The translations under genes and the position numbers were made by a program. DNA of 63,968 bases, filler included, from an uncultured bacterium (GTDB taxonomy: Bacteria > CAZSTA01): assembly GCA_964609495.1 (NCBI GenBank). It is 3 parts of 3 records of this genome, joined end to end, with 100 filler letters (N's around TTAATTAATTAA, not from the genome) between each part and the next. Parts side by side here need not be neighbours in the genome. Positions count along the whole stretch, not along the records: positions 49,131 to 63,968 come from CAZSTA010000083.1; 2 more parts are not named here. One strand, 5' to 3'. Positions 32,731 through 63,968 of this stretch are shown one piece after another; the stretch's first letter is position 1; each line of letters begins with the position of its first letter. The notes under the pieces are model-generated. The model had not been told where the DNA came from, searched no databases, and saw only the letters and a program-made list of their open reading frames with translations.

Positions 32731-33711
32731 CTATCTCCTTCCGAATCGGATGCCATCGGGCAACTTTAATCCATTCGCTCCCTCCCTCTTTAGAGACACT
32801 AATTTTCTAGGTTTCTGAAAAATAAGTATATACTCGTGGACCTTATTAATCCTAAAGACATACGGATAGCCCAGAGGTCTCAGATTATTATATTCCTGAC
32901 GGCGATCCCATATTATTATATCATCAAAGATAAAACCTACTTCCTGCATCATCAAGGCAATGTCTATATGAAATGGATAAAACTTCGCTTTCTTTCTGAT
33001 ATCCATCACTATTATTATACAATATTTTCCATCTTTTAAAACCTCAAATACATAGCTAAAAACTTCTTGCAAAGCATCTATAAACTTTCGATAATCTTTT
33101 ATCTTCCCTAAGTCCTCTTTAGTATCACCATAATCCCTAACATCCTTGTAATCAGCAGTTCGCTTTTGGCTTAGTATATCCCAGTAGGGAGGAGACGTTA
33201 GGCACATATCCACGGAGTTCGGTTTTAAATATTGCAATAGTTCCCTGGCATCTGCCCTATATATCTTATAATTTCTCCCTTCGCCAATATCAAATAGCTC
33301 CTTCTGCATAAGCCTATCCTCAGCTATCTTAATAAACTCCTCAGATATTTCAAACCCAATTCCTTCCTTACCGACTCTTTTAGCGGCTATAATTGTGCTA
33401 CCACTACCCATAAAGGGATCAAGGATGACCTTCTCTTCTTCCCTAGTAAATATCCTTATCAGCCTATCAGTGAGCTGGAGGGGAAACATAGCCGGATGGC
33501 TTATCTTAATTTCCTCGGAGCTCTTTTTAATATCGTTCCAGACACTGATCGAATATTGAAGCCAAGTTTTGCCATCCAATTCATTACATCTATTTAAATT
33601 CCGATCTTTTCTACTCTTAGAGTCCATCTTTAATTTGCTTATAGTAGCATTATGATCATATTCTCTCAAAGAAATCACTCCTCCTCTTATCTTAACCAGA
33701 ATCTCTATCAT
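32731..33711 (-). CDS. DNA methyltransferase (N4/N6 family, SPPY motif); true start probably further downstream
   Basis: HPAMFP, LDPFMGSGS, TSPPY, HEYILIFQK. Confidence 0.88.
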   Translation of the reverse strand: MIEILVKIRGGVISLREYDHNATISKLKMDSKSRKDRNLNRCNELDGKTWLQYSISVWNDIKKSSEEIKISHPAMFPLQLTDRLIRIFTREEEKVILDPFMGSGSTIIAAKRVGKEGIGFEISEEFIKIAEDRLMQKELFDIGEGRNYKIYRADARELLQYLKPNSVDMCLTSPPYWDILSQKRTADYKDVRDYGDTKEDLGKIKDYRKFIDALQEVFSYVFEVLKDGKYCIIIVMDIRKKAKFYPFHIDIALMMQEVGFIFDDIIIWDRRQEYNNLRPLGYPYVFRINKVHEYILIFQKPRKLVSLKREGANGLKLPDGIRFGRR

Positions 33712-34418: not shown

Positions 34419-34447
34419 ATTATAACGTTTTTGAGATGGAATGTCAA
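34419..34447 (-). promoter_or_regulatory. Consensus sigma70 promoter of rex
   Basis: TTGACA-17-TATAAT on the minus strand. Confidence 0.85.
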
Positions 34448-43578: not shown

Positions 43579-43824
43579 TCAAGTTGTCGGAGTTTCACTT
43601 CCATCCAATATCTCCTTGATCTGAAGCAGAGTATAATTCTGCTCCTTCAAGGTCTTTATTCTGTTTAACCTGTCAAATACTTCCTCGGAGAACAATCTAT
43701 GTCCAGAATCGGTTCTCTCTGACTCCTTGATCAACCCGATCTGAGTGTAATTATGAATGACTTGTCTGGACAAGCCACTGTATTTCATAACCTCTCCGAT
43801 CTTATAAAGCTTCTCTGGAAACAT
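43579..43824 (-). CDS. MerR-type HTH protein
   Basis: YKIGEV..SRQVIHNY..GHRLF. Confidence 0.88.
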   Translation of the reverse strand: MFPEKLYKIGEVMKYSGLSRQVIHNYTQIGLIKESERTDSGHRLFSEEVFDRLNRIKTLKEQNYTLLQIKEILDGSETPTT

Positions 43825-49130: not shown

Positions 49131-49131
49131 A

Positions 49132-49560
49132 GAGGAAGCCATCTCCGAATATAAAACTGCTCTCCAGATCAAACCTGATTATGCTGATGCTCACAACAAT
49201 TTAGGACTTCTCTACAAAGATCAAGGGAAGATAGAGGAAGCCATCTCCGAATATAAAACTGCTCTCCAGATCAAACCTGATTATGCTGATGCTCACAACA
49301 ATTTAGGACTTCTCTACAAAGATCAAGGGAAGATAGAGGAAGCCATCTCCGAATATAAAACTGCTCTCCAGATCAAACCTGATTATGCTCCTGCTCACGT
49401 TAATCTAGGACTTGCTTATAAGGAGAAGGGAGAAAAAGAAAAGGCAATCGAACATTTTGAGAGATATTTAGAATCATCTACCGATGAGTATTGGAACAAT
49501 AAGGCTAGGGAAAATATCGAAGAATTGAGGAAGGATATTACCACGAACTCTGAGGATTAA
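49132..49560 (+). CDS. C-terminal part of a TPR protein (5' end truncated)
   Basis: EEAISEYKTALQIKPDYADAHNNLGLLYKDQGKI repeated; about 2.5 identical 102-bp units (49131-49389). Confidence 0.9.
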   Translation, partial: EEAISEYKTALQIKPDYADAHNNLGLLYKDQGKIEEAISEYKTALQIKPDYADAHNNLGLLYKDQGKIEEAISEYKTALQIKPDYAPAHVNLGLAYKEKGEKEKAIEHFERYLESSTDEYWNNKARENIEELRKDITTNSED

Positions 49561-49593
49561 CTGCACTGTTATATAATGAAATCCGAGAGTCAA

Positions 49594-51144
49594 TTACCAA
49601 TTCATCAATTTGGTGATCCTATTCAACAATACCTCTGCCTCAGCCTGAGGGGTATCGGGCGTTATGGCGAGTTCATCACGCTCAGCATTATACTCGGTCT
49701 TGACGATATAAAAGGTAGCCTCAGAATCGAGAATATCATCCGTATCAAATGCTGATTCACGAGTGATAAGACCTCGAATATGAATCACCTTGCCCGCTCG
49801 GATATGAGAGACAGGAACAAGGCGTCCTTGCATATCCTGGACTGGCTTGGTTAGAACTATCCTAGCCTGAACAACTTTAGGCATAGCATGCGCTGCAAGG
49901 AAGAGCTCCCTAGCTCGCTGTGCCGCGGCAGTGGAGATAACCTTATCGATGATAACTGGATATTCCCTGGTAAGACCATACTCGGAGATAGAGGAGGAAT
50001 ATTCGGAAGCAGTAGTCCGAACTGGTTCTCCTTGAGGATTCAGATAACGAGTATAGACGCGATTGAACATCGTTTCTCCAAGCCGCTCTAATCGCTCGAT
50101 ACGACAATCCTTCAAGCGAGTATAGTAATCCACAGTATCATAATCCTTCTTCGCAAAGTAGGGCTTGCGATCCTCCCATACGTTAAAGAGCCATCGCTTG
50201 GCATCGTAACCATTGTCAAATTGAGAACACCACTCGATAACATCCCCCGGGGTCCAATCCTCATCGAAGGTGGAGGGAACGAGGGAATAACCAGGGGATT
50301 CTATCCCCGACTGATCGCTGGAGATTTGAGAGCATTTCGAGGTTAGGGCATCTTTGATTATGGTATCAGCATAGACATTCCCACTTGTGGAGTAAATAAC
50401 AACATTCGTCAATTCTCCATAGGTTGAACCAGTAGCCGCAGTATAGGGGTCTGCCGCCTGAAATCCTTGCAGACAGAGATAAATACTAGAGCCAGAGTTA
50501 AGATTAAGATCGAGATTACCTGTCCCTGGAGTTTGGGTCCAAAACTTGACATTCCAAGGGGTAGTTACAACACTAAGTTGATATGTTCCCATACCAGTCG
50601 CAACGGTTAGATCGTAGTTGGCAGTTAGACGCTGAGCATATTCGCCTGATGGCATATCATAACGAAATCCTCCATAAGCATATTGGGCGTAGGACTCATT
50701 ATATATTGCCGAGATCCTCAATCGATTCTTCCAATCATACTTCCAGGACTCCTGATACCAATATTGAGGGTAAGACCAGGGTGCAGCAGGTAAATACCAC
50801 TTCTTGAGTCTGCTATCAGCCCAGATACGGTTATAGATTCGGTCATAGAGGTTAGCCCAATAGCCATAAGCTCTTATGCGGAAACTCTCTCCGGTGGGGA
50901 GAGAGACCTTTTCGATCCCCTCCAAGCGACCTTCCCAAATGGTGGTTAAGCCATCCCTTATGGTGATTCTGGAGAAGAGCTTTAGATCCGACCATTGACG
51001 AGAGAGATCACGGTTTATGATGAAGCTACATTCTCCGAAACCTCCGGGGACAAAAGAGGTATAGCGAAGATCTTTCGCCTCCTTTTCGAGATGGGGATTT
51101 AAGAGATCTCCATCGCCACTATAGATTGAGATGCTCAAGGACAT
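49594..51144 (-). CDS. Putative phage tail/baseplate-hub-like protein
   Basis: PGGFGECSF..TIWEGRLE N-terminus; SISEYGLTRE..AAQRARELFL; IRAGKVI; beta-rich central insert. Confidence 0.6.
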   Translation of the reverse strand: MSLSISIYSGDGDLLNPHLEKEAKDLRYTSFVPGGFGECSFIINRDLSRQWSDLKLFSRITIRDGLTTIWEGRLEGIEKVSLPTGESFRIRAYGYWANLYDRIYNRIWADSRLKKWYLPAAPWSYPQYWYQESWKYDWKNRLRISAIYNESYAQYAYGGFRYDMPSGEYAQRLTANYDLTVATGMGTYQLSVVTTPWNVKFWTQTPGTGNLDLNLNSGSSIYLCLQGFQAADPYTAATGSTYGELTNVVIYSTSGNVYADTIIKDALTSKCSQISSDQSGIESPGYSLVPSTFDEDWTPGDVIEWCSQFDNGYDAKRWLFNVWEDRKPYFAKKDYDTVDYYTRLKDCRIERLERLGETMFNRVYTRYLNPQGEPVRTTASEYSSSISEYGLTREYPVIIDKVISTAAAQRARELFLAAHAMPKVVQARIVLTKPVQDMQGRLVPVSHIRAGKVIHIRGLITRESAFDTDDILDSEATFYIVKTEYNAERDELAITPDTPQAEAEVLLNRITKLMNW

Positions 51145-51209
51145 AGAAGTATTCTCCTTTCTTCTTAGGTAAGGTATAATCTTAGATAGCTAGTTCCTTG
51201 AAAAGAGGG

Positions 51210-51238
51210 TTGACATATAATCAACAAATATGTATAAT
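51210..51238 (+). promoter_or_regulatory. Consensus sigma70 promoter
   Basis: TTGACA-17-TATAAT. Confidence 0.8.
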
Positions 51239-51313
51239 AAAGGCTGGTGGTACTTTCCGCACCACAGAGGAAGGAGCGATTCGGTGCGGAAAATTATTAT
51301 AGGAGGTAAAATT

Positions 51314-52582
51314 ATGACTTCACGAGAAAGAGTTAGAAAGGCAATCAATCATGAAGTGTCGGATAAAGTTCCCCTTGACCTCGGCGGAACTGTGGTATCG
51401 AGTATCTCCGCCAGTTCCTACGCCAAGCTGAGAGAAGCTCTAGGACTTCCTGCCAAGCGAGTGCAGATCACGGAGCCCTATCAGATGTTAGGAGAGATCG
51501 AGCCAGAGGTAAGGGAGATCCTCGAGATCGATACCATTGGCTTGCAACTGCCAACAACTATGTTTGGATTCCGAAATGAGAATTGGAAGGAGTGGAAGCT
51601 CTTCGACGGAACCGAGGTCCTGATACCTGGGAAATTTGTTACCACCGCAGATGAGAAAGGGGATCTGCTCTTATATCCCGAGGGAGATACCTCAGCGCCA
51701 CCAAGCGGTAGAATGCCAGAGGGGGGTTACTATTTCGATGTGATCGTTCGACAGCCACCGATAGATGAGGACCACCTTGATCCTAGGGAGTGGGTTAAAG
51801 ATCAATATTTGCCCTACTCAGAGGAGGAGCTGCGTTATCTGGAGGAGAAGGCAAATGAGCTTTTCCACAATACCTCGCTCTCTATCATCGGCAACTTCGG
51901 AGGGGGTGGCTTTGGAGATATAGCTTGGGTGCCTGCTCCAAATGTCAAATATCCCCAAGGAATTCGTGATCCTAAGGAGTGGTATATAGCTCATGTCACT
52001 CATCCAGAGTATATCAGGGGTATCTTCGAGCTCCAGTGCGAGATCTCTATGAAGAACCTTCTGCTTTACCAACAGGCGGTAGGGGACAATATCGATATCG
52101 TATTCATCAGTGGCACGGATTTCGGGATGCAGAACGGACCATTTATTTCGCCCGATATGTATCGAGAGCTATATAAACCTTTTCACAAAAGGATAAATGA
52201 CTGGGTGCATAAGAATACGAACTGGAAGACATTCTTCCACACCTGCGGCTCTATCTCAGCCTTCCTCAATGATTTTGCGGAGGCCGGAGTTGATATCATC
52301 AATCCAGTGCAATGCTCCGCGGCAGAGATGAGTCCAAGTTATCTCAAGGGGAAATATGGAGATAAGTTCGTTTTCTGGGGTGGTGGAGTGGATACTCAGA
52401 AGACTCTCCCGTTTGGCACTCCCCAGGAAGTCAAGCGTGAGGTCCAAAAAAGGATCGAGATATTTGGCAAAGGAGGCGGATTCGTCTTCTCTGCGATTCA
52501 TAATATCCAACGAGGAACGCCCATTGAAAATCTAGTGGCTCTTTTTGAGGCGGTTAAGGAATTTCGCACATTGAGGGGATGA
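51314..52582 (+). CDS. Uroporphyrinogen decarboxylase / MtaA-like methyltransferase family protein
   Basis: MTSRERV..VPLDLGG; HTCG; FWGGGVDTQ; HNIQ. Confidence 0.88.
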   Translation: MTSRERVRKAINHEVSDKVPLDLGGTVVSSISASSYAKLREALGLPAKRVQITEPYQMLGEIEPEVREILEIDTIGLQLPTTMFGFRNENWKEWKLFDGTEVLIPGKFVTTADEKGDLLLYPEGDTSAPPSGRMPEGGYYFDVIVRQPPIDEDHLDPREWVKDQYLPYSEEELRYLEEKANELFHNTSLSIIGNFGGGGFGDIAWVPAPNVKYPQGIRDPKEWYIAHVTHPEYIRGIFELQCEISMKNLLLYQQAVGDNIDIVFISGTDFGMQNGPFISPDMYRELYKPFHKRINDWVHKNTNWKTFFHTCGSISAFLNDFAEAGVDIINPVQCSAAEMSPSYLKGKYGDKFVFWGGGVDTQKTLPFGTPQEVKREVQKRIEIFGKGGGFVFSAIHNIQRGTPIENLVALFEAVKEFRTLRG

Positions 52583-52767
52583 TGGACTTTATCCATCTCC
52601 TCTCTCTACCTTCCAGGGGGTGATTTATCATATCCTTGATTTTACCTGCGTCTCTTGAAGCAGGTGTTGGCAATGCTCTTCTTTTTTGACATACTCAATT
52701 GTCAAGTAAGATAAGCGTGATCGAGTGAATGTTTGCTCGAAGTTTCAATAAGTATAGGAGATAAGAA

Positions 52768-53283
52768 ATGATGAGATATATCAGTTTGATCTTAGCTATT
52801 ATGATAATGGGGGTTGCGATTCCCACCTACGCCGCCTCGAAGGGTGAGATAGCTGAGATCCAGGTGGATATAGCTAGCATAAAGTTGGATATAAATGCCC
52901 TACAAGACGCTATAGAGGATATGAAGAAGGAGTTGGAAAATTTCAGAAAGGATATGTCTTCTCCCATAACATTGGAGAATATGGAAGAGAGAATAACCTC
53001 TTTGGAAGCAAAAATGAAATCCCTAAATGAAAGCTTAGATAAACTGGAAATAGCTGCCTCTGAGAGGCCCGATGCGGAGGAATTAAAAGCCGAGATAAAA
53101 TCGGAGGTTATAGACGAAGTGCGAGGGATGATGAGAGATCTTTTAGTTGCTATTCCTCTTCCCCTTGATAAAGAGGCTCTTAAGGAGGAGATATTAGAGG
53201 AAGTTGACAAAAAGTTAGAGAGATTGAAGATGAAAAAGCAGCAGCCAGAGGGAATTGAGCCAGCTTATGATATAGAGTTTTGA
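52768..53283 (+). CDS. Secreted coiled-coil protein
   Basis: Signal peptide; heptad pattern. Confidence 0.75.
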   Translation: MMRYISLILAIMIMGVAIPTYAASKGEIAEIQVDIASIKLDINALQDAIEDMKKELENFRKDMSSPITLENMEERITSLEAKMKSLNESLDKLEIAASERPDAEELKAEIKSEVIDEVRGMMRDLLVAIPLPLDKEALKEEILEEVDKKLERLKMKKQQPEGIEPAYDIEF

Positions 53284-53303
53284 GATCATGGAGGGGAGGA
53301 GGA

Positions 53304-54161
53304 CTATAACGAAAGGGAGGCTACCCAACCTGACATAAAGATCAGAGCGCTGAAAGCAAGAAGTTTGAAGCTCCTCTGAAGGGTATTAAGACTCATATCT
53401 CGAGAGTAGAGGAGTAAACCGGCGGTGGTGAAGGCAAGACTTAGGATAGCCGTTAATCTGAGCAGGCTGTAGTTGTAGTCGAGCCAGGGATTAAGGAAAA
53501 TGGCGAGCAAGGGAGCTGCTATATAGCAGACTGCACCGAGGATCACGGACTTATTTTTACCGAGGATATGAACTAGCCCTCTCAAATGAAAGGAGATATC
53601 GCTTTCCAGATCGGGAAGGGTGTTAGTGATGTGGATTCCAATAGAGAGTAAGCCGATGATCGGATAAGCCCATAGAAGCTTCCATTCAAATTCCCCTAGA
53701 GCCATTCTAGTCCAGAAGACGAGGAGAGGATAGGCTATCATAAAGGGTAGCCAGCTTAGGATAGTCCTCTTCAACTTGACGTCATAGAGGAAACCCGCGC
53801 CTGTTCCGATGATTCCCAATAGAAGGGAGATCGGTCCGAACTTTATCGCTAGGATGCACATTGTGAAGAAAGATACAATAGCTAAAACCACGACTTCCTT
53901 GGGACTCAACCTTCCCGAGGAGATTGGCTTATTCGGTTTAAACCTATGGTCTAGCTCTCTATCGAAGAAGTCGTTGAGAGAGTTTATCGAGATCTGAGAG
54001 CAACATATCGCGGCTATAATTACCGTTATCTTCGGGAAAGGTGGAAAACCTTTGGCCGCGGATATGGAGAAGAGGTAGGTCAGTAAAGCGATCATAACCA
54101 GCGGGAAGGGATGGCATACCTCGAAATAAGCTTTCCACTTGACGAAGAGCTTGCGTAACAT
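53304..54161 (-). CDS. UbiA-family prenyltransferase
   Basis: NDFFDRELD..KPISSG; YD; NTLPDLESD. Confidence 0.88.
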   Translation of the reverse strand: MLRKLFVKWKAYFEVCHPFPLVMIALLTYLFSISAAKGFPPFPKITVIIAAICCSQISINSLNDFFDRELDHRFKPNKPISSGRLSPKEVVVLAIVSFFTMCILAIKFGPISLLLGIIGTGAGFLYDVKLKRTILSWLPFMIAYPLLVFWTRMALGEFEWKLLWAYPIIGLLSIGIHITNTLPDLESDISFHLRGLVHILGKNKSVILGAVCYIAAPLLAIFLNPWLDYNYSLLRLTAILSLAFTTAGLLLYSRDMSLNTLQRSFKLLAFSALIFMSGWVASLSL

Positions 54162-54244
54162 CGTCCATCAGCTCCCTATTACACGATCGAATTAAGAAGT
54201 TTCTAATTTCCACAATTAGTTGCCGAAGAGAGGAAGAGTTTTCA

Positions 54245-55075
54245 ATGTTCGGAAGAAAAATTCTCCTATTTTTCGCTTTGTTTCTCCTATCTCAAATCAT
54301 CTTATCAAGATCGATTTATGCTGAGGATATCTCCCAGCAGGTCGAGAAGAAAATCTTCAATTTGATAAATTTGGAGAGGAAGAAGCAAGGATTAGAACTG
54401 TATAAGTGGGATAGAAAACTGGATGTCCCTGCTCGTAATCACTCAAAAGATATGTTCAAAAGAAACTTCTTCGCTCACGAAAATCCAGATGGATTAAACC
54501 CTATTGATAGGCAACGGAGGGATTATCCAGAGCTTATCGGAGGAGTGGGGGAGAATATCCACTGCATAGAGACCACTTCCGAGGAGGAAGCTAAGAATGT
54601 CGCTTCGATAGCGAAGCAGGTGGTCAAGGATTGGATGAATTCTCCCGGCCATCGAGCGAATAACCTCTCTAAGAAATATACTCATCTAGGAGTAGGTGTC
54701 TATATCGGGAAGAAGGGAGATCGGTGGAAAATCTATACCTCAGTGGTCTTTGCGGACGAATATGGAGTATTCGATGATCTTGGCAAGTTGAAGCCTTTCA
54801 AACTAGCGATTAAGAATGGCAGCGAATTCACCCTGAAGGGGGAGATATATATCGCTCCTTCCAAGTTCTCGGCTTATATTACTCTCCCCGATCCCAAAGA
54901 GCGCTGTTCGAGCTCAGATGGCAAATATTATGTGGGAGCTTACCCCCCCAAGCTTTATATCAAGGGTAAAAATTTCAAGGTGATGATCGAGCTTAATAAG
55001 GGAAAAGGGACTTATAAACTCTTCTTCGGCAAAGGCAAGGCGTTCTATCTAGCCAAGATCTTCAAAGCCAAGTGA
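54245..55075 (+). CDS. Secreted CAP/SCP-domain protein
   Basis: INLERKK..HSKDM; GENI; WMNSPGHRAN. Confidence 0.9.
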   Translation: MFGRKILLFFALFLLSQIILSRSIYAEDISQQVEKKIFNLINLERKKQGLELYKWDRKLDVPARNHSKDMFKRNFFAHENPDGLNPIDRQRRDYPELIGGVGENIHCIETTSEEEAKNVASIAKQVVKDWMNSPGHRANNLSKKYTHLGVGVYIGKKGDRWKIYTSVVFADEYGVFDDLGKLKPFKLAIKNGSEFTLKGEIYIAPSKFSAYITLPDPKERCSSSDGKYYVGAYPPKLYIKGKNFKVMIELNKGKGTYKLFFGKGKAFYLAKIFKAK

Positions 55076-55642
55076 TCAGCCACTGACGGTTACGATACGG
55101 TAAGCATCCAGAAGTTCGGCTATATCCTTAGGCAATCCCACCTCGAAGCGAACTTCCCCTACCTTTGGATCGAGCATAGCATTTGCGTAGGCGGAGGTCC
55201 TTCTTATATACTCTCGACAGGCTAACTCAACAGCCGCGTTCCAAATATCGTATGGCCGAGAGGAATCATCACAGTAACCCCAATTTCCAGCGATAGCGAT
55301 ATTTCCTTTCCCTCTTTCGAACACCTTACCTACCTCAGTCTTAATAGTAATATATCTCTTGGGAAGAGAATTAAGGGGATAGAGCAGGTATTCATCAGAA
55401 GTAAGGTCTTCACCCTCATTGGAGATGCTTGTTACTGAGAGGAGATCTTCCCCTAAGAAGAGAGTTTTTATTCCCGTCCCATCAAAATATCTACTTTCTG
55501 ATACCGAGGTAAAGTGGCGTCCGGTGTAGCGATCTATGAGATCGCTCGCCGCAGTAATTAACTTAGAGATCAAGTCCTCATCGACTGAACCGAGAAGGTG
55601 TAACCGAGATTTTACCTCGGCCACCGTGCAATAGCTAGACAT
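55076..55642 (-). CDS. Phage head-tail connector (HK97 gp6/SPP1 gp15-like)
   Basis: YCTVAEVKSRL..LITAASDLIDRYTGRHF; WGY; LLDAYR. Confidence 0.8.
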   Translation of the reverse strand: MSSYCTVAEVKSRLHLLGSVDEDLISKLITAASDLIDRYTGRHFTSVSESRYFDGTGIKTLFLGEDLLSVTSISNEGEDLTSDEYLLYPLNSLPKRYITIKTEVGKVFERGKGNIAIAGNWGYCDDSSRPYDIWNAAVELACREYIRRTSAYANAMLDPKVGEVRFEVGLPKDIAELLDAYRIVTVSG

Positions 55643-56048
55643 ATTCGCACTCCTCCTTCACAGCTTCTCCGACTGGGATGGTCTTCAAAGCTAAATAGAC
55701 CTTTAGATCGACGCTTGGTTTTATCTCGGGGACCTCCTCGATATCGATCTCCAGTATATCTCCTTCCCTGAGCATATTAGTCGTCAGGAGAAAGGAATCA
55801 TCATCCACTCGAATATCGCTATCGGTGGGAAGACGTAAGGGATTAGAGGAAAGGAGTAGATTCTCCTCGCCTACTCGTAATTGAATCTTAGTTGCCTTCT
55901 CTCCTTCTCCCAAGCACTCAACGCTTGCCCCTATATCGATGATCCGGCAGTCATAAGGCACCTGCCATCTTCGTTGAGCCTTTCCAACCGATAATCTTCC
56001 TTCCACAGAGAGTCCCACTAGAAATATGTTAGAGTTAGATAAGGACAA
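55635..56048 (-). CDS. Beta-rich phage structural/decoration-like protein
   Basis: Inside the head operon; LREGDILEIDI; AAGGAGG RBS. Confidence 0.55.
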   Translation of the reverse strand: MSLSNSNIFLVGLSVEGRLSVGKAQRRWQVPYDCRIIDIGASVECLGEGEKATKIQLRVGEENLLLSSNPLRLPTDSDIRVDDDSFLLTTNMLREGDILEIDIEEVPEIKPSVDLKVYLALKTIPVGEAVKEECEYV

Positions 56049-56094
56049 TTTGACAACCTCCTTCGGTCGAATTATAGAGGATGAACAGAGCGCC

Positions 56095-56280
56095 CTAAAG
56101 AATGGGTCTGAAGAGAAAAGTAATCCCTGCCAACCTGCTATCCGAGAATTTCCGCCTCCTGGGAAGAGGTCGTAACATTTTATCCTCTCTCTTCTCTATC
56201 TTAGCCGTCCTTTTGAGCTGGTTATTTATCTCTTCCTCCTCAGTTATAATCTGCCAAACTATTATGAATTGGGATTGCAT
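56095..56280 (-). CDS. Small protein downstream of the capsid gene
   Basis: GGAGG RBS; EDKMLRP motif; position in the head operon. Confidence 0.45.
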   Translation of the reverse strand: MQSQFIIVWQIITEEEEINNQLKRTAKIEKREDKMLRPLPRRRKFSDSRLAGITFLFRPIL

Positions 56281-56350
56281 TTATCTCATCCTCCATTTTG
56301 TGGTGCTAAATTGTTACAAGAGATAATTATACGCGATGTGGCGATGTTAC

Positions 56351-56381
56351 TTGCGCGGTCGGATCAAATCCGACCACGCAA
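56351..56381. terminator. Hairpin after the capsid gene
   Basis: TTGCGCGGTCGGA-TCAAA-TCCGACCACGCAA. Confidence 0.55.
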
Positions 56382-56452
56382 TTATCATCAGGAAATGTTA
56401 ATTGGAAGATGGAAATTGGGCGTAATCGCTCAACATTTTCCACTTTCTATTT

Positions 56453-58339
56453 CTAAACAGTAATGTTATACCCTACCGCGCTTACCTCATTATCGAAGTT
56501 GATGTGGGCAAAGCGCAGAGTTCCAACTATCCTATATTGGTCGGTAGCGATTATCCTTTCCGTCTCGATCTTCAGATGGCGTCTCCAGCCTCCCAGCCAG
56601 CCTCGTCTATTCGCGAGGCAGATCTGTCCTTTGGTGTTATTCGCGGGGGTTGCTGAACACTTTCCATCCTCCTCGGTAAGCAACATCTCCTCGGAGACGA
56701 CGATGGGGATTCCAAAGATCTTGCCCAACTCCCCGGTTAAGATCGTGGCTTCTGGCCCGTACCTATCGACTGTCACCACCTCTGCTAGCTCAACTGCCTT
56801 CAAATAAGTAGCGATATCCATAATGAAGGCGAGATCGCTAGGAGTCGCTCCCCAATTTCCCATCAAGCCCCGCAGGATGTTGAAGCCACTCTTGGTCAAG
56901 GTAGCGATATTATCGGCGTCATTTGAAGCATTATCGGTATTCGTAACGAGCGCTAGATGACGAAGCCCATCCATCGCCAAGTAGTTCTTCGTAGAAGCAG
57001 GCTCAGCATCATCGGAGTTGATGTTTCCAGTTGCGGAGGTGGTTGTATCACCGTTTAGGATCACGTTATCTATCCCGTGCAGGGCCGAGGTGATTAACTG
57101 CTGGCGGAGGAAGGGAAGCACGGGAATTATAGAATCCTCATCCATCTCACCTGAATACATCGTATGGATCGCGAACTTCTTCGCCTCGAGCGTCTTATTG
57201 CTGGTTCCAGGGGAATTCTCAGGGAAGTCCGAGGAGTTATATGTAGTGGACTCCGCTACGTAGAACATCTCTGGCAAGGTTGATTCGACGGGAAGCTTAT
57301 AGGGATTGGTGGGCATCTCAAGGAAAGTGAAGAACGAGGCGATCTTTGCCTCCAATCGGATCTTCTCCCAAACTTCAGAGGCGAAGTTAGTGGGGATGAA
57401 TTCAGCTCCTTCTCCCGCGGTCGCCGTGTCGAGAGCTTTGCGAAGCTGTTCGCTGGGCGATCTCCCGCTCGAGGAGAGGATCGCAGTTAGTAGCTCTAAA
57501 TCCCCCAAGCTTTTCAATCCTGCTCTGGCGAATTTAGATCGCACCTCGATTCGCGGCTTTGTAGGGAAGGAGAGCTTCGCATTGATGGGAGTGTTCACTA
57601 TCGTATCCTTGAGCGAGCTCATCTCTTGTCTCAAATCCTGAGCTACCTTCACCTCCTCTTTGATCGATTCCATAGTTTCAGTTAAATTCTCTAAATTACC
57701 TTCTAAGGTCTTAATTCTATCTTCGGTCAATTCGGTATCCTCCTTTTTTGTGAGAATTTTCTTCTCTTTAGTGGGTATAGGTTGTTCATCATCTGAACAA
57801 TCGCTGCCATCCAAAACGCTGAGATCACCTTGAGGAAAGCCATCTTCATCCTCCTCAAGATCGAGGATCTTAACAATGCTGAAGATCGCATCCTGGTTTG
57901 CTGGAACTGTCACGACGGATATCTCCGCCAGATCCCAACGATTGATGTTATTGATGCCCTCGGCATCGACTTCTCCAATGATGTCACTCGTGGTGCAGAT
58001 CGAGAGGGCATTTAGCACCCCTTGTTGGATAAGCGTCCAAACCTCATCGGCAAGCGGTGTTCCCTTGGCGATTCGGGCTTTGATATAGAGACCATCAGGT
58101 AGAATATCGAGTTCAAGAATCCTACCGATGGGCTTATCCAGATCGTGGTTGTATAATAGGATCGGATTACGGAGATAGTTTGCTAATCCCTCTCGAAAAG
58201 CCTCCGGCCAGATGCGGTCTCCAACTCGGTCGATAGCATCTGTCGAGGCATATCCCTCGATGGTCCTATCCTCTTCTTCATCTTCAGATTGATTCATAAT
58301 GGATTTGATCCGAGCGTGCATCGCAAGGTATCTCTTCAT
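56453..58339 (-). CDS. Fused prohead protease (S78) + HK97-fold major capsid protein
   Basis: IEGYAS..DRVGD..LLYNHD..PIG; EISVVTVPAN; coiled-coil scaffold; GAEFIP..; GKIFGIPIVVSE. Confidence 0.92.
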   Translation of the reverse strand: MKRYLAMHARIKSIMNQSEDEEEDRTIEGYASTDAIDRVGDRIWPEAFREGLANYLRNPILLYNHDLDKPIGRILELDILPDGLYIKARIAKGTPLADEVWTLIQQGVLNALSICTTSDIIGEVDAEGINNINRWDLAEISVVTVPANQDAIFSIVKILDLEEDEDGFPQGDLSVLDGSDCSDDEQPIPTKEKKILTKKEDTELTEDRIKTLEGNLENLTETMESIKEEVKVAQDLRQEMSSLKDTIVNTPINAKLSFPTKPRIEVRSKFARAGLKSLGDLELLTAILSSSGRSPSEQLRKALDTATAGEGAEFIPTNFASEVWEKIRLEAKIASFFTFLEMPTNPYKLPVESTLPEMFYVAESTTYNSSDFPENSPGTSNKTLEAKKFAIHTMYSGEMDEDSIIPVLPFLRQQLITSALHGIDNVILNGDTTTSATGNINSDDAEPASTKNYLAMDGLRHLALVTNTDNASNDADNIATLTKSGFNILRGLMGNWGATPSDLAFIMDIATYLKAVELAEVVTVDRYGPEATILTGELGKIFGIPIVVSEEMLLTEEDGKCSATPANNTKGQICLANRRGWLGGWRRHLKIETERIIATDQYRIVGTLRFAHINFDNEVSAVGYNITV

Positions 58340-58356
58340 TAAGATATCACCTCTTT

Positions 58357-59535
58357 CTACTTTCCAATTTCTTTATCTCTTGGGGATAATCCATATCTTC
58401 GAGCTCGAACCTCATCGGGCGTCAGGACGCCATACTTCAGATCGATCTCATCTCGTAGGCGTTGCTCCTCCAAGTTTTGAGGAACTACATCATCGAATTT
58501 CCCTACAAGACGAGCCCCTATCGGGTGAGGATAATCGAACATCGGTAATAGCTCTGCGGTGATCTTCTCCGCAATAGTGGTGAGCTTCGGTTTGATCGTG
58601 TGGGCCATAAAGTTCCGCTCATCGCTCTCTGTGGTCGCTCGATAGCGATTATACAATCCCAAGAGAGAAGCGGGGACGCGAAAGACGGATAGTATCTCAT
58701 CTCTGGAGAACTCTCGCTGGGCTAAGAACTCCGCGTCCTTCGGGGAGATCCCGATCGGTTGATACTCCAGCCCTCGTCCTAAGATCGCTATCTTATGGGA
58801 TCGGGTCACGCCCTTGAAAGATATCTCCCAACGTTTTAAGAGCTCATCAACCTCCTGTTGAGAGAGTCGCTGTTCGGTTTTGAGGAGTCCTGCGGGGCGC
58901 GCGTTATTCGAGAAGAAGGTGCGATTATAGACCTGGGCGTAAAGATCGGTCGAGGTCGCCAAAGCTCCTGCCTCGATCCCTGAGAGGCCATAATACTCAT
59001 CAAGGGGATGCCATCGTTTGAAGCAGATCACCTCCTCAGCTTCGAGGGAGATCGTTTCCTCTTCGACAGTATAGAGATATCCAGCGATGAATTCATCCTT
59101 GGAGGGAACGACCGCTACTCGATGGGGAAAGAGGGGCATAATCTGAATCGGTTCTCCATAGCTATTTTTGATGAGGTACCAGTAAGCTTGCCCTGCTAAC
59201 TCCAGCGATCCGATCGTATGCGCCCATAGCTCGAAGCGGGAGAGCTTCGGATGAGGACGAGTGAGGAGCCTTGTTAAAGGATGATCTGGTAGTTTCTTCA
59301 ATTCATCGCCTTGCTCAGCGAAGACGGAGAAGGGAACAGTTGCACAAGTATCGATAATGAGCGATACACAAGCATATACCCACGATTCTTGCGTATAAGT
59401 GCGGGCGTAGTCATCATATCCTGAAGGTGTTGCTATCTCCTGACCTCCTCTCGTTAGATCGAAATCAGCGAGGATTTGAGTGGAGTTTCTGGGGATTTTG
59501 AAGATCCTGGTGAGGATTTGTTTAAGGAAGGACAT
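58357..59535 (-). CDS. HK97-family portal protein
   Basis: WVYACV; LAGQAYW; YGLSGI; FFSNNARP; FRVPASLLG; TPDEVR. Confidence 0.93.
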   Translation of the reverse strand: MSFLKQILTRIFKIPRNSTQILADFDLTRGGQEIATPSGYDDYARTYTQESWVYACVSLIIDTCATVPFSVFAEQGDELKKLPDHPLTRLLTRPHPKLSRFELWAHTIGSLELAGQAYWYLIKNSYGEPIQIMPLFPHRVAVVPSKDEFIAGYLYTVEEETISLEAEEVICFKRWHPLDEYYGLSGIEAGALATSTDLYAQVYNRTFFSNNARPAGLLKTEQRLSQQEVDELLKRWEISFKGVTRSHKIAILGRGLEYQPIGISPKDAEFLAQREFSRDEILSVFRVPASLLGLYNRYRATTESDERNFMAHTIKPKLTTIAEKITAELLPMFDYPHPIGARLVGKFDDVVPQNLEEQRLRDEIDLKYGVLTPDEVRARRYGLSPRDKEIGK

Positions 59536-59583
59536 CAAGGAACCTCCTGCTATCAACGGATTAAACGGATTCTTGGGATATTT

Positions 59584-59781
59584 TTAGTTTAAAGTGGAGA
59601 TAAGGATGTGTTCGGTAGTCAGTTTAAATATAGACATAATTGCTCTTAGGATGAAACTATAACCGTACTTCTTATCGAACCTAGTTTTGTCTAATTTGAT
59701 CTTGGATGGAGAATCACCATCCTCTGGGATTAACTCAACATCTGGCACTTCATATTCCTGACCTCTGAAGGTTAGCTTCAT
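59584..59781 (-). CDS. Small hypothetical protein (65 aa) between terL and portal
   Basis: GAGGAG RBS before MKLTFRGQEYEV. Confidence 0.5.
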   Translation of the reverse strand: MKLTFRGQEYEVPDVELIPEDGDSPSKIKLDKTRFDKKYGYSFILRAIMSIFKLTTEHILISTLN

Positions 59782-59830
59782 TGGCAGAATCAACTCCTCT
59801 CTTTCGAGATACTTCCTAGAGATACCTAGG

Positions 59831-61273
59831 TTAAAACATCTGTATCTTACCTTCATCACTCAAAGCTACCTCCAGAGCTTTCTCCACCGCATCCAGGGTA
59901 TCATCGTGACGACCAGTAGGGAATTCAAGCCATTCCTTTACAAATTCATCTAATCCCTTTCTAATGCGTATCCTTCCGGATTCGAAGTGCACCGCCATCG
60001 CGGCGAAGCGAGTTTTTTTATCTTTAATTGTTCTGCCAGCGCGCACTGGAAGCGTTGTTGTCGCTAAAAGTTGCTGGTGTAGTGCCGCCTGATAAGCATT
60101 GCTCTCCAAATTTATAATAAGAGGCTTCCAACGAGAGGATTGCTCGGAGACAGCTCTTAGTTGCTCGGGGAAGGAGAGGCGAGCGCGATAGATGTCGAGA
60201 AGCCACAGATGATTATCTGCATCCCTCCCCACTGTAGCTATCGCTGTCCAGTCCGCCTCCTCTCCCTCAGATAAAGCTAGATCCACGCCTTGGTAGATAT
60301 TTAACTCGGCCAGGGGCGGTCGTTCCTCATCATTGTAATATTTTAGCCATTTGGCCAGTAGGAATGCACCGCTATCCCTGGCCGGGACATTTTGTTTTTC
60401 CCGATCGAAGAGGAGTGAACCAGTCGCTAAGCGATCTAAGAGTAAGGTCTTAATATCCCACTTCTCTGGCCACAGCACTTCATAAGAACCGTCAACTACA
60501 ACATCAACTACCTGCCCGGCTTCATCTTCTATATATTCATACTTATCCGGCCATTTCACTATGGCTCGGTCTATATCGCATACCCAAAGGGGGTTTTCCA
60601 TAAGCCGACTGTAGAGATCGTCGTAGTGCTTGCGAGTTCCCACTACAATCACTTGGGTAGCAGGCTCGGCAAGCTGCATAATAGTGCCGTGAAACCAATC
60701 GTAGGTATCCTGTCTGCGTTTAGCCGTCTTGGTATTCTCATCATCCACGATATCGTCAGCTACGATTAGATCGAAGTGTCCACCGGTTATCGCCCCTAAG
60801 GCTCCTACTACTTCTACGGTGGGATCTTTCGATTGACGAGAGCGACGACAGTAGATAGCGGTTTGACTCCAAGGGAGGTCGGGCGAGATGAGATCACCGA
60901 AGTCCTCGCGAATCCGTTCGTTAGTTTCAAGTTCCCGCTTAATGACCGATAGGCATTTCTTCGCCTGCGTGCTGGTCTTACTGAGGATGAGAATGCGCAC
61001 CTCGGGGTCTCTTAGGATGCAATAGAGCGGGTAGGTGATAGTGAAGACCTCGGTCTTCCCATGATCACGGGGAGCTAATTTCAAGAGGCGATTAGCCAAT
61101 GGATCGGAGAAGTCGTTGATCTCATCTAGGATTCTGTACCAACGTCTCTGATGAGCGGGGATTTTTTGATTTCGATAGTAATGGGCAAAGAAGGCAATAT
61201 TCGCTTCAGCTATCGGACGAGACCAGCTCGTCCCCAATGGCTCGCAGAAGTCGGGTTGGTACTGATAGTTCAT
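59831..61273 (-). CDS. terL: Terminase large subunit
   Basis: Walker A PRDHGKT; Walker B IVADD; VGTR coupling motif; nuclease GVDLA and HDDTLDA. Confidence 0.93.
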   Translation of the reverse strand: MNYQYQPDFCEPLGTSWSRPIAEANIAFFAHYYRNQKIPAHQRRWYRILDEINDFSDPLANRLLKLAPRDHGKTEVFTITYPLYCILRDPEVRILILSKTSTQAKKCLSVIKRELETNERIREDFGDLISPDLPWSQTAIYCRRSRQSKDPTVEVVGALGAITGGHFDLIVADDIVDDENTKTAKRRQDTYDWFHGTIMQLAEPATQVIVVGTRKHYDDLYSRLMENPLWVCDIDRAIVKWPDKYEYIEDEAGQVVDVVVDGSYEVLWPEKWDIKTLLLDRLATGSLLFDREKQNVPARDSGAFLLAKWLKYYNDEERPPLAELNIYQGVDLALSEGEEADWTAIATVGRDADNHLWLLDIYRARLSFPEQLRAVSEQSSRWKPLIINLESNAYQAALHQQLLATTTLPVRAGRTIKDKKTRFAAMAVHFESGRIRIRKGLDEFVKEWLEFPTGRHDDTLDAVEKALEVALSDEGKIQMF

Positions 61274-61703
61274 TGGTGACCTCCCTGAAGGAATCTTTCG
61301 ATGGAGGGAAGGATTTAGTCTTAGCGTTATGTTTGAAGTAGCGGATGATCATCTCAGCCCCATGACGGATCTCGCGTTGTAATTCTACTTGCTGTTTAAT
61401 CGTCAGGGGATGATCTTCGTCCTCCTCTTCGTGGAGTCTTTCCACGAACTTATCGAGCCCTCTCTTTACGTGGAGGAGAACTTCGGTTGGCAGGCAGGAT
61501 AGATCGGACTTTGTCTCATCCGATATACGGCTGAGAGCGACGCTGATGAGATGTTCTAGTAGGGTTTCTATAGATACTTGAGTGCCTCGCTCTCGAAGTT
61601 TTTGGACAATTTGGAAGGGGGATAGACCTCGCTCGAAAAAATCTAGCTCGATCTCCTCTCTATCGGAACTTTCACAGATTACACAGTGGTGGATCATAAT
61701 CAT
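61206..61703 (-). CDS. Putative terminase small subunit (CxxC/HTH N-terminus)
   Basis: Directly upstream of and overlapping terL; CVIC..EIE..GLS..IV..H. Confidence 0.6.
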   Translation of the reverse strand: MIMIHHCVICESSDREEIELDFFERGLSPFQIVQKLRERGTQVSIETLLEHLISVALSRISDETKSDLSCLPTEVLLHVKRGLDKFVERLHEEEDEDHPLTIKQQVELQREIRHGAEMIIRYFKHNAKTKSFPPSKDSFREVTNELSVPTRLLRAIGDELVSSDS

Positions 61704-61777
61704 CCCGATAGAAAATAATTGGTGAGAAACAAAGGTGGGTAACTACCTACAAAAATCGAATTTTATTTCCTACCTAT

Positions 61778-61806
61778 ATTTTACCCACTTTTAGACTCAG
61801 AGTCAA
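61778..61806 (-). promoter_or_regulatory. sigma70-like promoter of the head operon (copy 1)
   Basis: TTGACT-17-TAAAAT. Confidence 0.7.
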
Positions 61807-62039
61807 GGAAAGAAAATCTCCTTTGCCCTGATTTTTCTGTTGACATAGCTCGATAGAAATGCTTTGGACAATTTGGAAGGGGGATAGACCTCGCTCGAAA
61901 AAATCTAGCTCGATCTCCTCTCTATCAGGACTCTTACAGATTACGCAGTGGTGGATCATAGTCATCCCGATAGGAAATAATTGGTGTGAATAAAGGTGGG
62001 TAACTACCTACGAAAATTAAAATTTTATCTTCTGTCTAT

Positions 62040-62068
62040 ATTTTACCCACTTTTAGGCTCGGAGTCAA
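62040..62068 (-). promoter_or_regulatory. sigma70-like promoter of the head operon (copy 2)
   Basis: TTGACT-17-TAAAAT. Confidence 0.65.
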
Positions 62069-62101
62069 GGAAAGAAAATCTCCTTTGCCCTGATTTTTCT
62101 G

Positions 62102-62130
62102 TTGACATACCACGATAGAAATGCTATAAT
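62102..62130 (+). promoter_or_regulatory. Consensus sigma70 promoter upstream of the candidate ncRNA
   Basis: TTGACA-17-TATAAT. Confidence 0.85.
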
Positions 62131-62152
62131 TGGAAAAATATAAGACCACTCT

Positions 62153-62320
62153 CGGTGAGCTTGGTCGATGAAACCTCATCCATCCTGACGATTTACTATG
62201 TAGCATCTATCTTCTTTTTACTTCGAGTAAAAGTGCTGTTTGAGATAACGTCAGGACCTTCCGGGAATCGTAGGACACTGGGTTTGGTCCCACCTCCAGT
62301 GATATCGACTAAGCTCACCG
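62153..62320 (+). ncRNA. Candidate structured ncRNA (6S-like size, family unassigned)
   Basis: 17-bp closing stem with one G-U; inner TCCTGACG/CGTCAGGA, AGCA/TGCT, TTTTACT/AGTAAAA and CACTGG/CCAGTG stems. Confidence 0.6.
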
Positions 62321-62397
62321 TAATCTAAAACTGTCCATAGCAATAGCGAACTATATTCACAATTAAGAATCCGTTGACAGTAAGTAGGAGGAATAAG

Positions 62398-63243
62398 GTG
62401 AACAAAAGAAGAAACATAATAAATCTTCCTAATGCGACTATAACCGCCATATCATGGGTGATATTAATTGCCGGGGCGATAATGATGATAGGTCCATTTA
62501 TGTGGATGGCTCTCGCTTCTTTTAAACCGAATAAGGAGATAATGAAAATACCACCCACCTTTTGGCCCCAAAAATCTAGCTTCAAAAACTACACGACAGT
62601 CCTTACCACTATCCCCTTTACTCGCTATTACCTGAACAGCATAATAGTAGCAATAGTAGTAACTTTCGGGGCGATATTTACCAGCTCTCTAGCTGGATAT
62701 ATCTTCAGCCGATATGAGTTCAAGGGGCGAGATATAATTTTTATGCTGATCCTATCAACGATGATGATCCCCTTTCAGGTGATTATGATTCCCCTTTATA
62801 AAATAGCGATAGACTTGAAGCTAACTAATACTTATCCGGGCTTGATGTTGTGGGGGCCAATAACCACCTTTGGTATATTTATGATGAAGCAATTTATGCA
62901 CTCTATACCAAGAGACCTGATGGATGCGGGAAAGATCGATGGCTGTTCTAACTTCGGGATATATTGGCGGATCGTGCTACCTTTGATCAAGCCAGCTCTG
63001 GCTACTCTAGGAGTCTTCGTCTTTATGAGTAATTGGGATTCCTTTCTATGGCCTCTTATCATAACTACGGAGATGAAGATGAGGACTCTGCCCCTTGGTT
63101 TAGCTATGTTTATCTCCCAACGTTCCATCCGTTATGACCTGATTATGGCCGCCGCTACGATGGCGGTTATCCCGGTTATCATCGTTTTTCTTTTTGGACA
63201 GAGATTTTTCGTCAAAGGGATAACTTTAACAGGATTGAAGTGA
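62398..63243 (+). CDS. Carbohydrate ABC permease (MalG-type)
   Basis: DAGKIDG; WDSFLWPL; AGGAGG RBS before GTG. Confidence 0.92.
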   Translation: MNKRRNIINLPNATITAISWVILIAGAIMMIGPFMWMALASFKPNKEIMKIPPTFWPQKSSFKNYTTVLTTIPFTRYYLNSIIVAIVVTFGAIFTSSLAGYIFSRYEFKGRDIIFMLILSTMMIPFQVIMIPLYKIAIDLKLTNTYPGLMLWGPITTFGIFMMKQFMHSIPRDLMDAGKIDGCSNFGIYWRIVLPLIKPALATLGVFVFMSNWDSFLWPLIITTEMKMRTLPLGLAMFISQRSIRYDLIMAAATMAVIPVIIVFLFGQRFFVKGITLTGLK

Positions 63244-63339
63244 GAAAGGAGGGGATATAGAGGGGAAAAATTAAATGACTTATTTAACAACCTTGCCGTA
63301 GATGTAAAAACTAACCAATTTTGAAAGGGAGGATAAGAA

Positions 63340-63968
63340 ATGAGAAAAGCGAGTTTATTTATAGCTCTGTTGGTGTTCATTTTGCTGTTTACGGGAGTTT
63401 CAGAGGCTAAAGAGAATATATCACTTTGGATCCACAGTAATATCTCCTGGGTGGAAGCCTGGAACAAGATAGCGGATGATTTCCACGCTGGTAATCCCGA
63501 TATCAAGGTGAACATCGAGGTCTTTCCCGACTTCGGTGATAAGATTATGTCGTCCTACGCGGCTGGAACTGAGGGCGATGTAATCGATATGCTTGGCTCT
63601 ATGCTCTTAAGATACGCTACGGAGGGTTTATTAGAAGAAGTTCCCTCTGATTATATGACTGCCGAGGAGATGGAAGAGACCTTCTGGCCGGTGGTCTTGG
63701 CTAGCTATCAGCATGAGGGCAAGTACTATGGTGTTCCCTTCGACTTCAACGTAGCTGGAACTGGAGTGGTTATGAATTTAGAGCTTCTGGAAGAGGCTGG
63801 AATGACTGTTCCTCAGGAATGGATTGATAGTCGCCAGGCTGGGAAGACTTGGGGAGAGTTAGTAGAGTTCTCCAAAAAGCTTAGCGAATTCGACAGTGAA
63901 GGTAATATGACTCAGGCTGGATTAGCTTGGGTGAATTGCCATGAGCACTCCGATTACTTCGCTATAAT
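63340..63968 (+). CDS. Sugar ABC substrate-binding protein (runs off the window end)
   Basis: MRKASLFIALL signal peptide; FHAGNPDIKVNIE; GKYYGVP. Confidence 0.88.
   Translation, partial: MRKASLFIALLVFILLFTGVSEAKENISLWIHSNISWVEAWNKIADDFHAGNPDIKVNIEVFPDFGDKIMSSYAAGTEGDVIDMLGSMLLRYATEGLLEEVPSDYMTAEEMEETFWPVVLASYQHEGKYYGVPFDFNVAGTGVVMNLELLEEAGMTVPQEWIDSRQAGKTWGELVEFSKKLSEFDSEGNMTQAGLAWVNCHEHSDYFAI

Follow-up and report, generated by a model that had tools for sequence, protein, structure and literature searches.

An intact HK97-type head and packaging operon and an orphan tail hub gene in an uncultured salt-marsh sediment bacterium: a candidate prophage remnant

The window analysed here is a stretch of 63,968 bases from an uncultured bacterium, composed of several contigs of a metagenome-assembled genome (MAG) with runs of N between them. 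The piece studied is the contig at positions 49131–63968 (14,838 bp), and the search for further genes was extended over the remaining 49 kb of the window. The contig carries a minus-strand operon for phage head formation and DNA packaging (61703–55076), in which all frames are unbroken and four of the eight open reading frames (ORFs) listed below (TerL, portal, protease–capsid fusion and adaptor) have family matches in both Pfam and PHROGs. The initial annotation, made from the sequence alone, is confirmed in its description of a stand-alone head and packaging operon with intact frames between cellular genes. On the same strand, 3.9 kb downstream, lies a gene that the initial annotation missed and that we assign to a phage tail hub. 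The operon and this gene comprise the following features.

61206–61703, minus strand: terS-like gene, 165 aa, with an N-terminal helix-turn-helix (HTH)-like segment; directly upstream of TerL and overlapping it
59831–61273, minus strand: large terminase TerL, 480 aa (phrog_38, 1.1e-99; PF17289, 9e-11; PF03237, 1.6e-4)
59584–59859, minus strand: ORF between TerL and portal, 91 aa, unsupported
58357–59556, minus strand: portal, 399 aa (PF04860, 3.2e-70, profile positions 2–319 of 321; phrog_12, 7e-80)
56453–58339, minus strand: fusion of an S78 prohead protease and an HK97-type major capsid protein, 628 aa (PF04586, PF05065)
56049–56452, minus strand: spacer 3′ of the capsid gene, 404 nt, with a 12-bp hairpin and a 61-aa ORF
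55635–56048, minus strand: all-beta protein, possibly a capsid cement or decoration protein, 137 aa, with homologues in the related contigs L001 and L002
55076–55642, minus strand: head–tail adaptor Ad1, 188 aa (phrog_442, 2.5e-25, profile positions 85–265 of 270; PF05135, 3.6e-5)
49594–51144, minus strand: orphan tail/baseplate hub gene, 516 aa (P0211), assigned from its AlphaFold 2 (AF2) model and Foldseek fold matches

The core of the operon is that of an HK97-type caudoviral head module. TerL is predicted to combine ATPase and RNaseH-like nuclease domains, as expected for such a module, and Pfam identifies a portal, an S78 protease and an HK97-fold capsid protein, the last two in one chain (PF04586, 7e-19, over residues 18–153; PF05065, 1.5e-8, over residues 314–611). 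We compared these proteins with those of related contigs, including L001 (10.7 kb) and L002 (7.9 kb), which are IMG/VR contigs with 57–61% capsid identity. TerL is 57% identical to the L001 protein and 60% identical to that of a further contig, L024. Its residues G72-K73-T74, D173-D174, D331 and D457-D458 are invariant in the alignment with L001, and H65 and S113 of the protease are invariant across the alignment of capsid-fusion relatives. The TerL and protease motifs had been called intact; the invariance of these residues agrees with that description, and the P-loop and acidic positions of TerL and H65/S113 of the protease are presumed to be catalytic. The portal aligns to residues 11–388 of the 650-aa portal–MuF fusion of L002 and to residues 64–422 of the 562-aa portal of L001, and it lacks the MuF-like C-terminal extension present in the portals of L001, L002 and a more distant contig, L008.

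The smaller genes are less uniformly recognized. The first gene had been labelled terS-like; its position and viral-like features uphold this label, but it has no match in Pfam or PHROGs. By its ESM-Atlas features it scores 0.95 against clusters of hypothetical viral proteins, and it does not resemble the L001 terS. We therefore infer terS from position and viral-like language-model features only. As for the small genes that had been counted as parts of the operon, the 137-aa gene does have relatives, but the 61-aa and 91-aa ORFs lack a homologue or family match. The 91-aa ORF matches nothing in Pfam or PHROGs and has no counterpart in L001 or L002. The 61-aa ORF (56095–56280) has a Shine–Dalgarno sequence and lies in the 404-nt spacer, the sequence of which has no second copy within the window; in L001 and L002, by contrast, the next gene starts within ~15 nt of the capsid gene.

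The 137-aa protein is homologous to L001_121, L002_125 and L002_123 and to residues 79–195 of the L002 adaptor, and its gene homologues sit directly 3′ of the capsid gene in the relatives. Its AF2 model reaches a pLDDT of only 65, and the best Foldseek rows are the phage cement proteins of Pam1, KHP40 and KHP30 at weak E values of ~1e-3, so that a function as capsid cement or decoration protein is possible. The window adaptor matches residues 1–70 and 191–306 of the L002 adaptor. The ~120-aa cement-like domain occurs three times in L002 (4866–6597), as two tandem genes and as an insertion in the adaptor (residues 79–195 of 313), and once each in L001 and the window. Decay by loss of a second small gene was considered and rejected, because the copy number of this ~120-aa gene differs among the relatives and the 404-nt spacer shows no pseudogene trace.

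The hub gene has no match in Pfam or PHROGs. It has 1184 relatives at E ≤ 0.001 among 1.84 billion representatives; two of the 45 aligned full-length relatives weakly match YQBQ (Pfam), and one matches an unnamed PHROG. The ESM-Atlas features score 0.97 to viral clusters, which are 63–100% viral. The AF2 model, calculated from the 45-sequence alignment, has a pLDDT of 89 and a pTM of 0.83, and Foldseek matches it to 184 PDB chains at E ≤ 0.001. It matches best the baseplate hub of DT57C/T5 (3e-12 and 5e-11) and Mu gp44 (4e-10, TM score 0.71 on the target); the lambda tail tip is matched too, as are hubs from monocin, diffocin, pyocin, extracellular contractile injection systems (eCIS) and VgrG, and E values over many hubs range from 3e-12 to 1e-8. 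Judged by its modelled fold, 49594–51144 is a phage tail/baseplate hub gene of the gp27/Mu gp44/T5 pb3 N-terminal type, and the picture of a piece without any tail gene has to be withdrawn. The gene is isolated: a TPR gene on its left runs toward it, and a URO-D-family gene on its right points away from it. The TPR protein (49131–49560, plus strand) has a C-terminal part of near-identical 102-nt (34-aa) tandem repeats, which is cut by the contig end.

No contig shared by relatives of the hub and of the head module is evident (hub contigs of 10,987 and 19,699 bp; capsid contigs of 17,767, 30,983 and 17,425 bp). A scan of viral contigs with the hub alignment gave none among 106 stretches, and a tblastn search found no match in 50,697 phage records and only matches at E ≥ 0.2 in the contigs of the head-module relatives.

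The closest relatives of the head module are all metagenomic. A search of 5.8 billion protein clusters gave the capsid fusion only five close relatives, with 57–62% identity, and the best non-self identity of TerL is 60–62%. Cultured phages lie below 30% capsid identity, with T5-like Proteus phages at 27%. In one genome per species from 185,579 species, no relative of the capsid fusion was found among 45 and 120 pattern-matched stretches; these scans (with the single capsid sequence and with the alignment) rely on short peptide patterns, which distant relatives may escape. TerL, portal and capsid are common to L001, L002 and the window, and the neighbours are all different. In L002, a gp10-like Neck1 gene and then a 138-aa gene come after the adaptor. 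L001 and L002 are the two relatives whose downstream context is visible, and in each of them one to three neck genes close the head module and give way to non-structural or opposite-strand genes, not tail genes (past 7837 in L001; a methyltransferase at 7496 in L002). L024 carries its TerL beside ParB, DNA methyltransferases and a different portal and capsid set, an arrangement typical of phage mosaicism. TerL relatives of 45–49% identity sit on contigs of 40–60 kb. L008, with a capsid 34% identical and an adaptor of the same phrog_442 family, has the order amidase, TerL, portal–MuF, protease, capsid, adaptor, 137 aa, Neck1, 162 aa, 607 aa, 144 aa, tape-measure protein (TMP) and Dit, which marks it as an ordinary tailed phage. 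In L008, ~8 kb separate the adaptor from the expected place of the hub, whereas in the window this distance is 3.9 kb and holds four cellular genes. These and the features at the upstream end are as follows.

51230–55075, mixed strands: four genes of cellular type that separate the hub gene from the adaptor, identified by Pfam matches
61601–61862 and 61863–62125: 262-bp tandem duplication, missed by the initial annotation and not att-like
62153–62320, plus strand: structured element of ~170 nt, multi-branched, with a 17-bp closing stem (62153–62169/62304–62320)

The four cellular genes encode a URO-D-family methyltransferase (plus), a secreted coiled-coil protein (plus), a UbiA prenyltransferase (minus) and a CAP-domain protein (plus). 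The stop codon TGA of the CAP gene (55073–55075) is followed immediately by TCA, the adaptor stop, at 55076, so that the two genes abut stop-to-stop, exactly as had been described. The URO-D-like gene has thousands of 62–72% identical homologues in sediment bacteria, and the best-named ones, from Candidatus Aerophobetes at ~69–70%, are the sole clue to the host. With the best flanking-gene homologue only 72% identical, close relatives of the host itself are also unsampled.

The contig contains no integrase, lysogeny, replication or lysis gene by Pfam and PHROGs, in line with the earlier description for integrase, replication and lysis genes. Neck, tail-tube, tape-measure and lysis genes were found nowhere in the 64-kb window, and none of 40 further ORFs (Pfam) or of 14 (PHROGs) is a phage structural gene. 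Of the elements of a complete prophage (integrase or att sites, lysogeny control, replication, a full tail and lysis genes adjoining the head genes), only the hub gene, as the sole tail gene, is represented. No att-like repeat was found, as had been stated, but the only repeat that is present, the 262-bp tandem duplication, had been overlooked. Genes resembling those of mobile elements also occur in other pieces of the window: a DnaC/IstB-like loader (phrog_50, 4e-15) beside a truncated FtsK (1951–2727, minus), an N6/N4 DNA methyltransferase flanked by Rex and hydrogenase-type genes (32731–33711, minus) and an 81-aa HTH protein with weak excisionase/transposase matches (43579–43824, minus). 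A molybdopterin formate-dehydrogenase-like gene (27413–30145, minus) consists of two ORFs joined by a single in-frame TGA (CAHL-TGA-HSPTV), which is probably a selenocysteine codon and not a gene break.

To describe the junctions, we compared the window with assemblies of public sequencing runs. Part of the window is contained in 23 runs, chiefly from salt-marsh and marsh sediment, and four were compared in detail. A contig of run assembly X3 spans the CAP/adaptor joint (54718–55204), contigs of X1 span the UbiA/CAP region (53517–54678) and the hub/URO-D joint (50707–51516), and the upstream region into the ABC permease gene is spanned by contigs of X1 (61870–62779) and X2 (62181–62578). Further X2 contigs cover 52139–52962 and 51116–51876. 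The joint-crossing contigs of the separate run assemblies differ from the window at 0–3 positions, and no alternative joints or loose ends at the module borders occur among the rows listed in this comparison. The locus therefore has a single chromosomal context, and a chimeric assembly is unlikely because contigs assembled independently from other runs span the critical joints. It is near-identical between run assemblies of 2019 and 2025, with a depth like that of the flanks, although contig depth is a rough measure; as a gauge of copy number it was discarded, since module and flanks are alike in four runs but the measure is too coarse. Coverage of the locus in the runs is low (depth 2–7), the CAP region is without cover in X2, which carries no evidential weight, and run contigs stop at the tandem repeat.

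The head-operon contigs in the runs differ by 0–1 letters, in contrast to a diversity hot spot at the 3′ end of the hub gene. There, run X2 (and X1 partly) carries a variant with 14 listed positions differing within 90 nt (49751–49837). The hot spot surrounds a low-confidence loop of the hub model (residues 463–472).

The composition of the module is foreign and not ameliorated. Between its tetranucleotide profile and that of the window's pooled host DNA, the correlation is r = 0.83, whereas all six host windows of the same length (6.7 kb) give 0.90–0.96. The two halves of the module give r = 0.83 and 0.79 against a host median of 0.91, with one and none, respectively, of 14 host windows as low. 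The GC content is 47.6% in the module and 43–44.5% in the host.

At the upstream end, each copy of the tandem duplication holds 34 codons from the start of terS together with a TTGACT-17-TAAAAT site (61806–61778 and 62068–62040). The copies differ by 20 substitutions and three gap columns over 264 columns (7.7% substitution divergence), and their number is not independently confirmed because the run contigs break at the repeat. The promoter proposed earlier does lie at 61806–61778, but it is a 10/12 match, and promoter-like matches of 9–12 of 12 occur at chance frequency (12 in the window versus 11.7 ± 3.6 in shuffles). Perfect consensus sites are a different matter. The window contains five TTGACA-N17-TATAAT sites (2768–2796, 2882–2910, 34419–34447, 51210–51238 and 62102–62130) versus 0.01 expected from shuffles, and the organism appears to use full-consensus promoters unusually often. 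The one at 62102–62130, on the plus strand and with a TG element, reads toward the structured element and the permease gene. The second copy of the repeat contains the −35 element and spacer of this rightward promoter, which serves the neighbouring leader and permease; if the promoter is host DNA, the duplication therefore postdates the joining of the upstream end of the operon to the host.

The structured RNA reported beside the operon is recovered at 62153–62320, with folding z scores of −3.4 and −4.3 (−4.3 on the plus strand), just upstream of a MalG-type ABC permease gene (62374). Rfam gives no match at E ≤ 1, the window holds no further copy, and a known RNA or a repeated mobile element was rejected on these two grounds. 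A pattern of its 17-nt arm matched 17 viral contigs, but the similarity extends over only 17–30 nt, and we ascribe it to chance or a coding motif. The element may be an undescribed leader or riboswitch-like RNA. No remnant of a MalF-type permease or binding protein lies upstream of the MalG-type gene, which could point to a truncated ABC operon as a scar; this gene, however, has its own perfect consensus promoter and leader.

Our preferred reading, held with some reserve, is that the locus is a rearranged, tail-deficient remnant of a siphovirus-type HK97-like prophage in the chromosome of a salt-marsh sediment bacterium. What is observed are the gene identities, junctions that are continuous, a foreign composition and a contig without the other phage modules. 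It is the most economical reading, given the canonical order of the surviving genes, the cellular genes in place of the neck-to-Dit segment, the lack of the other modules, the foreign composition, and relatives that are mobile and non-syntenic. We infer that the head operon and the hub derive from one prophage and that rearrangement or deletion took the rest. The survivors would be the complete head and packaging operon, from the terS-like gene to Ad1, and one tail-tip hub gene on the same strand; the neck–tail–TMP–Dit segment, which takes ~8 kb in L008, would have been replaced by the four cellular genes in mixed orientation. A shuffled prophage remnant had been named in the initial annotation as the alternative to its own proposal, and the downstream hub in canonical phage order fits it well. 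If the operon is transcribed from the duplicated sigma-70-like sites, it could assemble portal-containing HK97-type proheads, in which the fused S78 protease could process the capsid protein to which it is joined. TerS and TerL could then package DNA, and the Ad1 adaptor could be added. The locus itself cannot supply neck, tail-tube or lysis functions.

Several points weigh against a remnant. The six recognizable head genes and the hub are all full length, and long decay should leave breaks. To leave exactly one complete operon with its own promoter, two deletions or replacements are needed, and random decay has more parsimonious outcomes. In a neutral simulation at half the divergence of the repeat copies, the six ORFs acquire a mean of 6.9 premature stops; this suggests, as weak evidence, that the frames are kept open by selection, because only three of 2000 neutral runs leave all six open. 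The argument requires that the copies diverged where they now lie and did so once the phage life style had been lost, and that the promoter and leader are not phage-derived. The X2 variant of the last 95 hub codons, in which the hub/TPR junction is kept, has pN/pS = 0.47, which is not significant (P = 0.085, 14 differences). For TerL, only three codon changes are listed among the strains, and purifying selection as a conclusion from strain variants was set aside for too few data in both genes. Furthermore, the scarcity of close module relatives says little about conservation, because the close relatives of the host are also unsampled. Finally, gene transfer agents (GTAs) closely resemble remnant phages, are without replication genes and are often split into loci of one or two genes, as a review states (PMC11841831); architecture and sequence alone therefore do not separate a remnant from a GTA.

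The initial annotation had favoured a domesticated GTA-like or head-only particle system. As a rival to the remnant, domestication would mean a multi-locus GTA-like system in which the host keeps the head operon here and single structural genes (the hub here, others elsewhere) under promoters of its own, with host DNA as cargo. The seven recognizable structural genes with intact frames agree with this, as do a contig free of replication, integration and lysogeny genes, repeat copies that have diverged without acquiring stop codons (the three of 2000 simulations above), and a locus that is stable from 2019 to 2025 at flank-like depth, as far as the rough measure of contig depth allows. An operon plus a one-gene locus also resembles the GTA layout described in PMC11841831. 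Against it stand an unameliorated composition (r = 0.83 versus at least 0.90 in all six host windows) and relatives that, where their context is visible, have viral-type, non-syntenic neighbours. Orthologues above 62% identity were found nowhere, none were found in the 185,579 species genomes, and none with conserved host synteny turned up. Neck, tube, tape-measure and lysis genes were not found in the other 49 kb of the window either, and the promoter-like site is a 10/12 match of chance frequency. We consider this domestication unlikely, and the initial proposal is only partly supported. A broader version, in which selection maintains a split particle system that consists of a head operon with duplicated promoter and single tail genes, GTA-like or tail-borrowing, in a candidate phylum, is rather doubtful too; to our knowledge, no GTA-like or tail-borrowing capsid system is known in the phylum of this host.

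A capsid-forming, tail-stealing satellite like the phage-inducible chromosomal islands that form their own capsids (cfPICI), or its stranded packaging half, would make small heads and take tails and lysis from a helper. The terS-like gene, terL, portal, protease–capsid and adaptor correspond to the structural half of a cfPICI, and a protease–capsid fusion is typical of those of Firmicutes (PMC10085698). Both relatives with downstream context show no tail gene after the neck genes, although L001 and L002 are short and open-ended and their tails may lie outside, and the distant relative L008 is a tailed phage of the ordinary kind. Against a satellite, the contig holds none of its integrase, AlpA-type regulator and primase–replicase, a head–tail connector or closure gene was not found, and a tail hub gene lies beyond the four cellular genes, where it may be outside such an element; the operon itself has no tail or holin gene. 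This origin strikes us as improbable. An assembly or binning artefact, in which phage and bacterial DNA were wrongly joined in a metagenome contig, could be suspected from the N-joined MAG contigs of the window, the low run coverage and the run contigs broken at the tandem repeat; with contigs of other runs crossing the critical joints at 0–3 differences and no loose ends at the borders among the rows listed, it is hardly credible.

As a prophage remnant only, the locus is of modest value: it adds an HK97-type phage lineage that is uncultured, with no more than 62% identity to any sampled sequence and less than 30% to cultured phages, a hub family of 1184 relatives that escapes both Pfam and PHROGs, and an example of a prophage reduced to a single intact functional module. 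Should selection explain the intact frames, the locus would instead be a candidate particle system, GTA-like or tail-borrowing, that evolved independently in a candidate phylum. Sequence alone hardly tells such a selected system from a remnant, and this makes the locus a concrete test case in salt-marsh sediments.

Among known systems, the locus is closest to cryptic prophage remnants, of which the cryptic prophages of E. coli K-12 are examples. It shares with them structural genes without lysogeny, replication or lysis genes, a position among cellular genes, a foreign composition and host genes at the place of tail genes. It differs in that all genes are intact, a whole module with its promoter region is kept, and no insertion sequence (IS) or pseudogene marks the breaks.

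With the GTAs RcGTA, BaGTA and VSH-1 (PMC11841831), it shares a content of packaging and structural genes only, no replication genes and a division among loci, including one of a single gene. GTAs known so far combine head and tail genes in a core cluster, are conserved by vertical inheritance and have been shown to package host DNA. The locus differs in its foreign composition and in that no conserved orthologues were found; of the particle gene set, it has a complete head set and one hub, with no neck, tube, TMP or lysis gene found in the 64 kb.

With cfPICI, it shares a tail-free operon of terS, terL, portal, protease–capsid fusion and adaptor, and the fusion recurs in cfPICI of Firmicutes (PMC10085698). 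According to the same paper, the left half of their 11 core components comprises an integrase, an AlpA-type regulator and a primase–replicase. This half is missing from the contig; of the structural half, terL, portal, protease–capsid and adaptor are present, terS is assigned by position only and the connector is not found. In addition, a hub lies nearby, and the host belongs to a sediment lineage outside Proteobacteria and Firmicutes.

HK97-like siphophages (L008 and T5-like Proteus phages) share TerL, portal, S78 protease, HK97 capsid and the phrog_442 adaptor in the same order, together with the T5 pb3/Mu gp44 hub fold. The neck-to-Dit segment, ~8 kb in L008, is not present here, four cellular genes standing in its place, and the portal is without the MuF-like extension seen in L001, L002 and L008. 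In summary, the parts are of well-known families and the architecture is of a known kind, that of a cryptic prophage remnant. What is new is the phage lineage, the unrecognized hub family and the unusually clean survival of one whole module.

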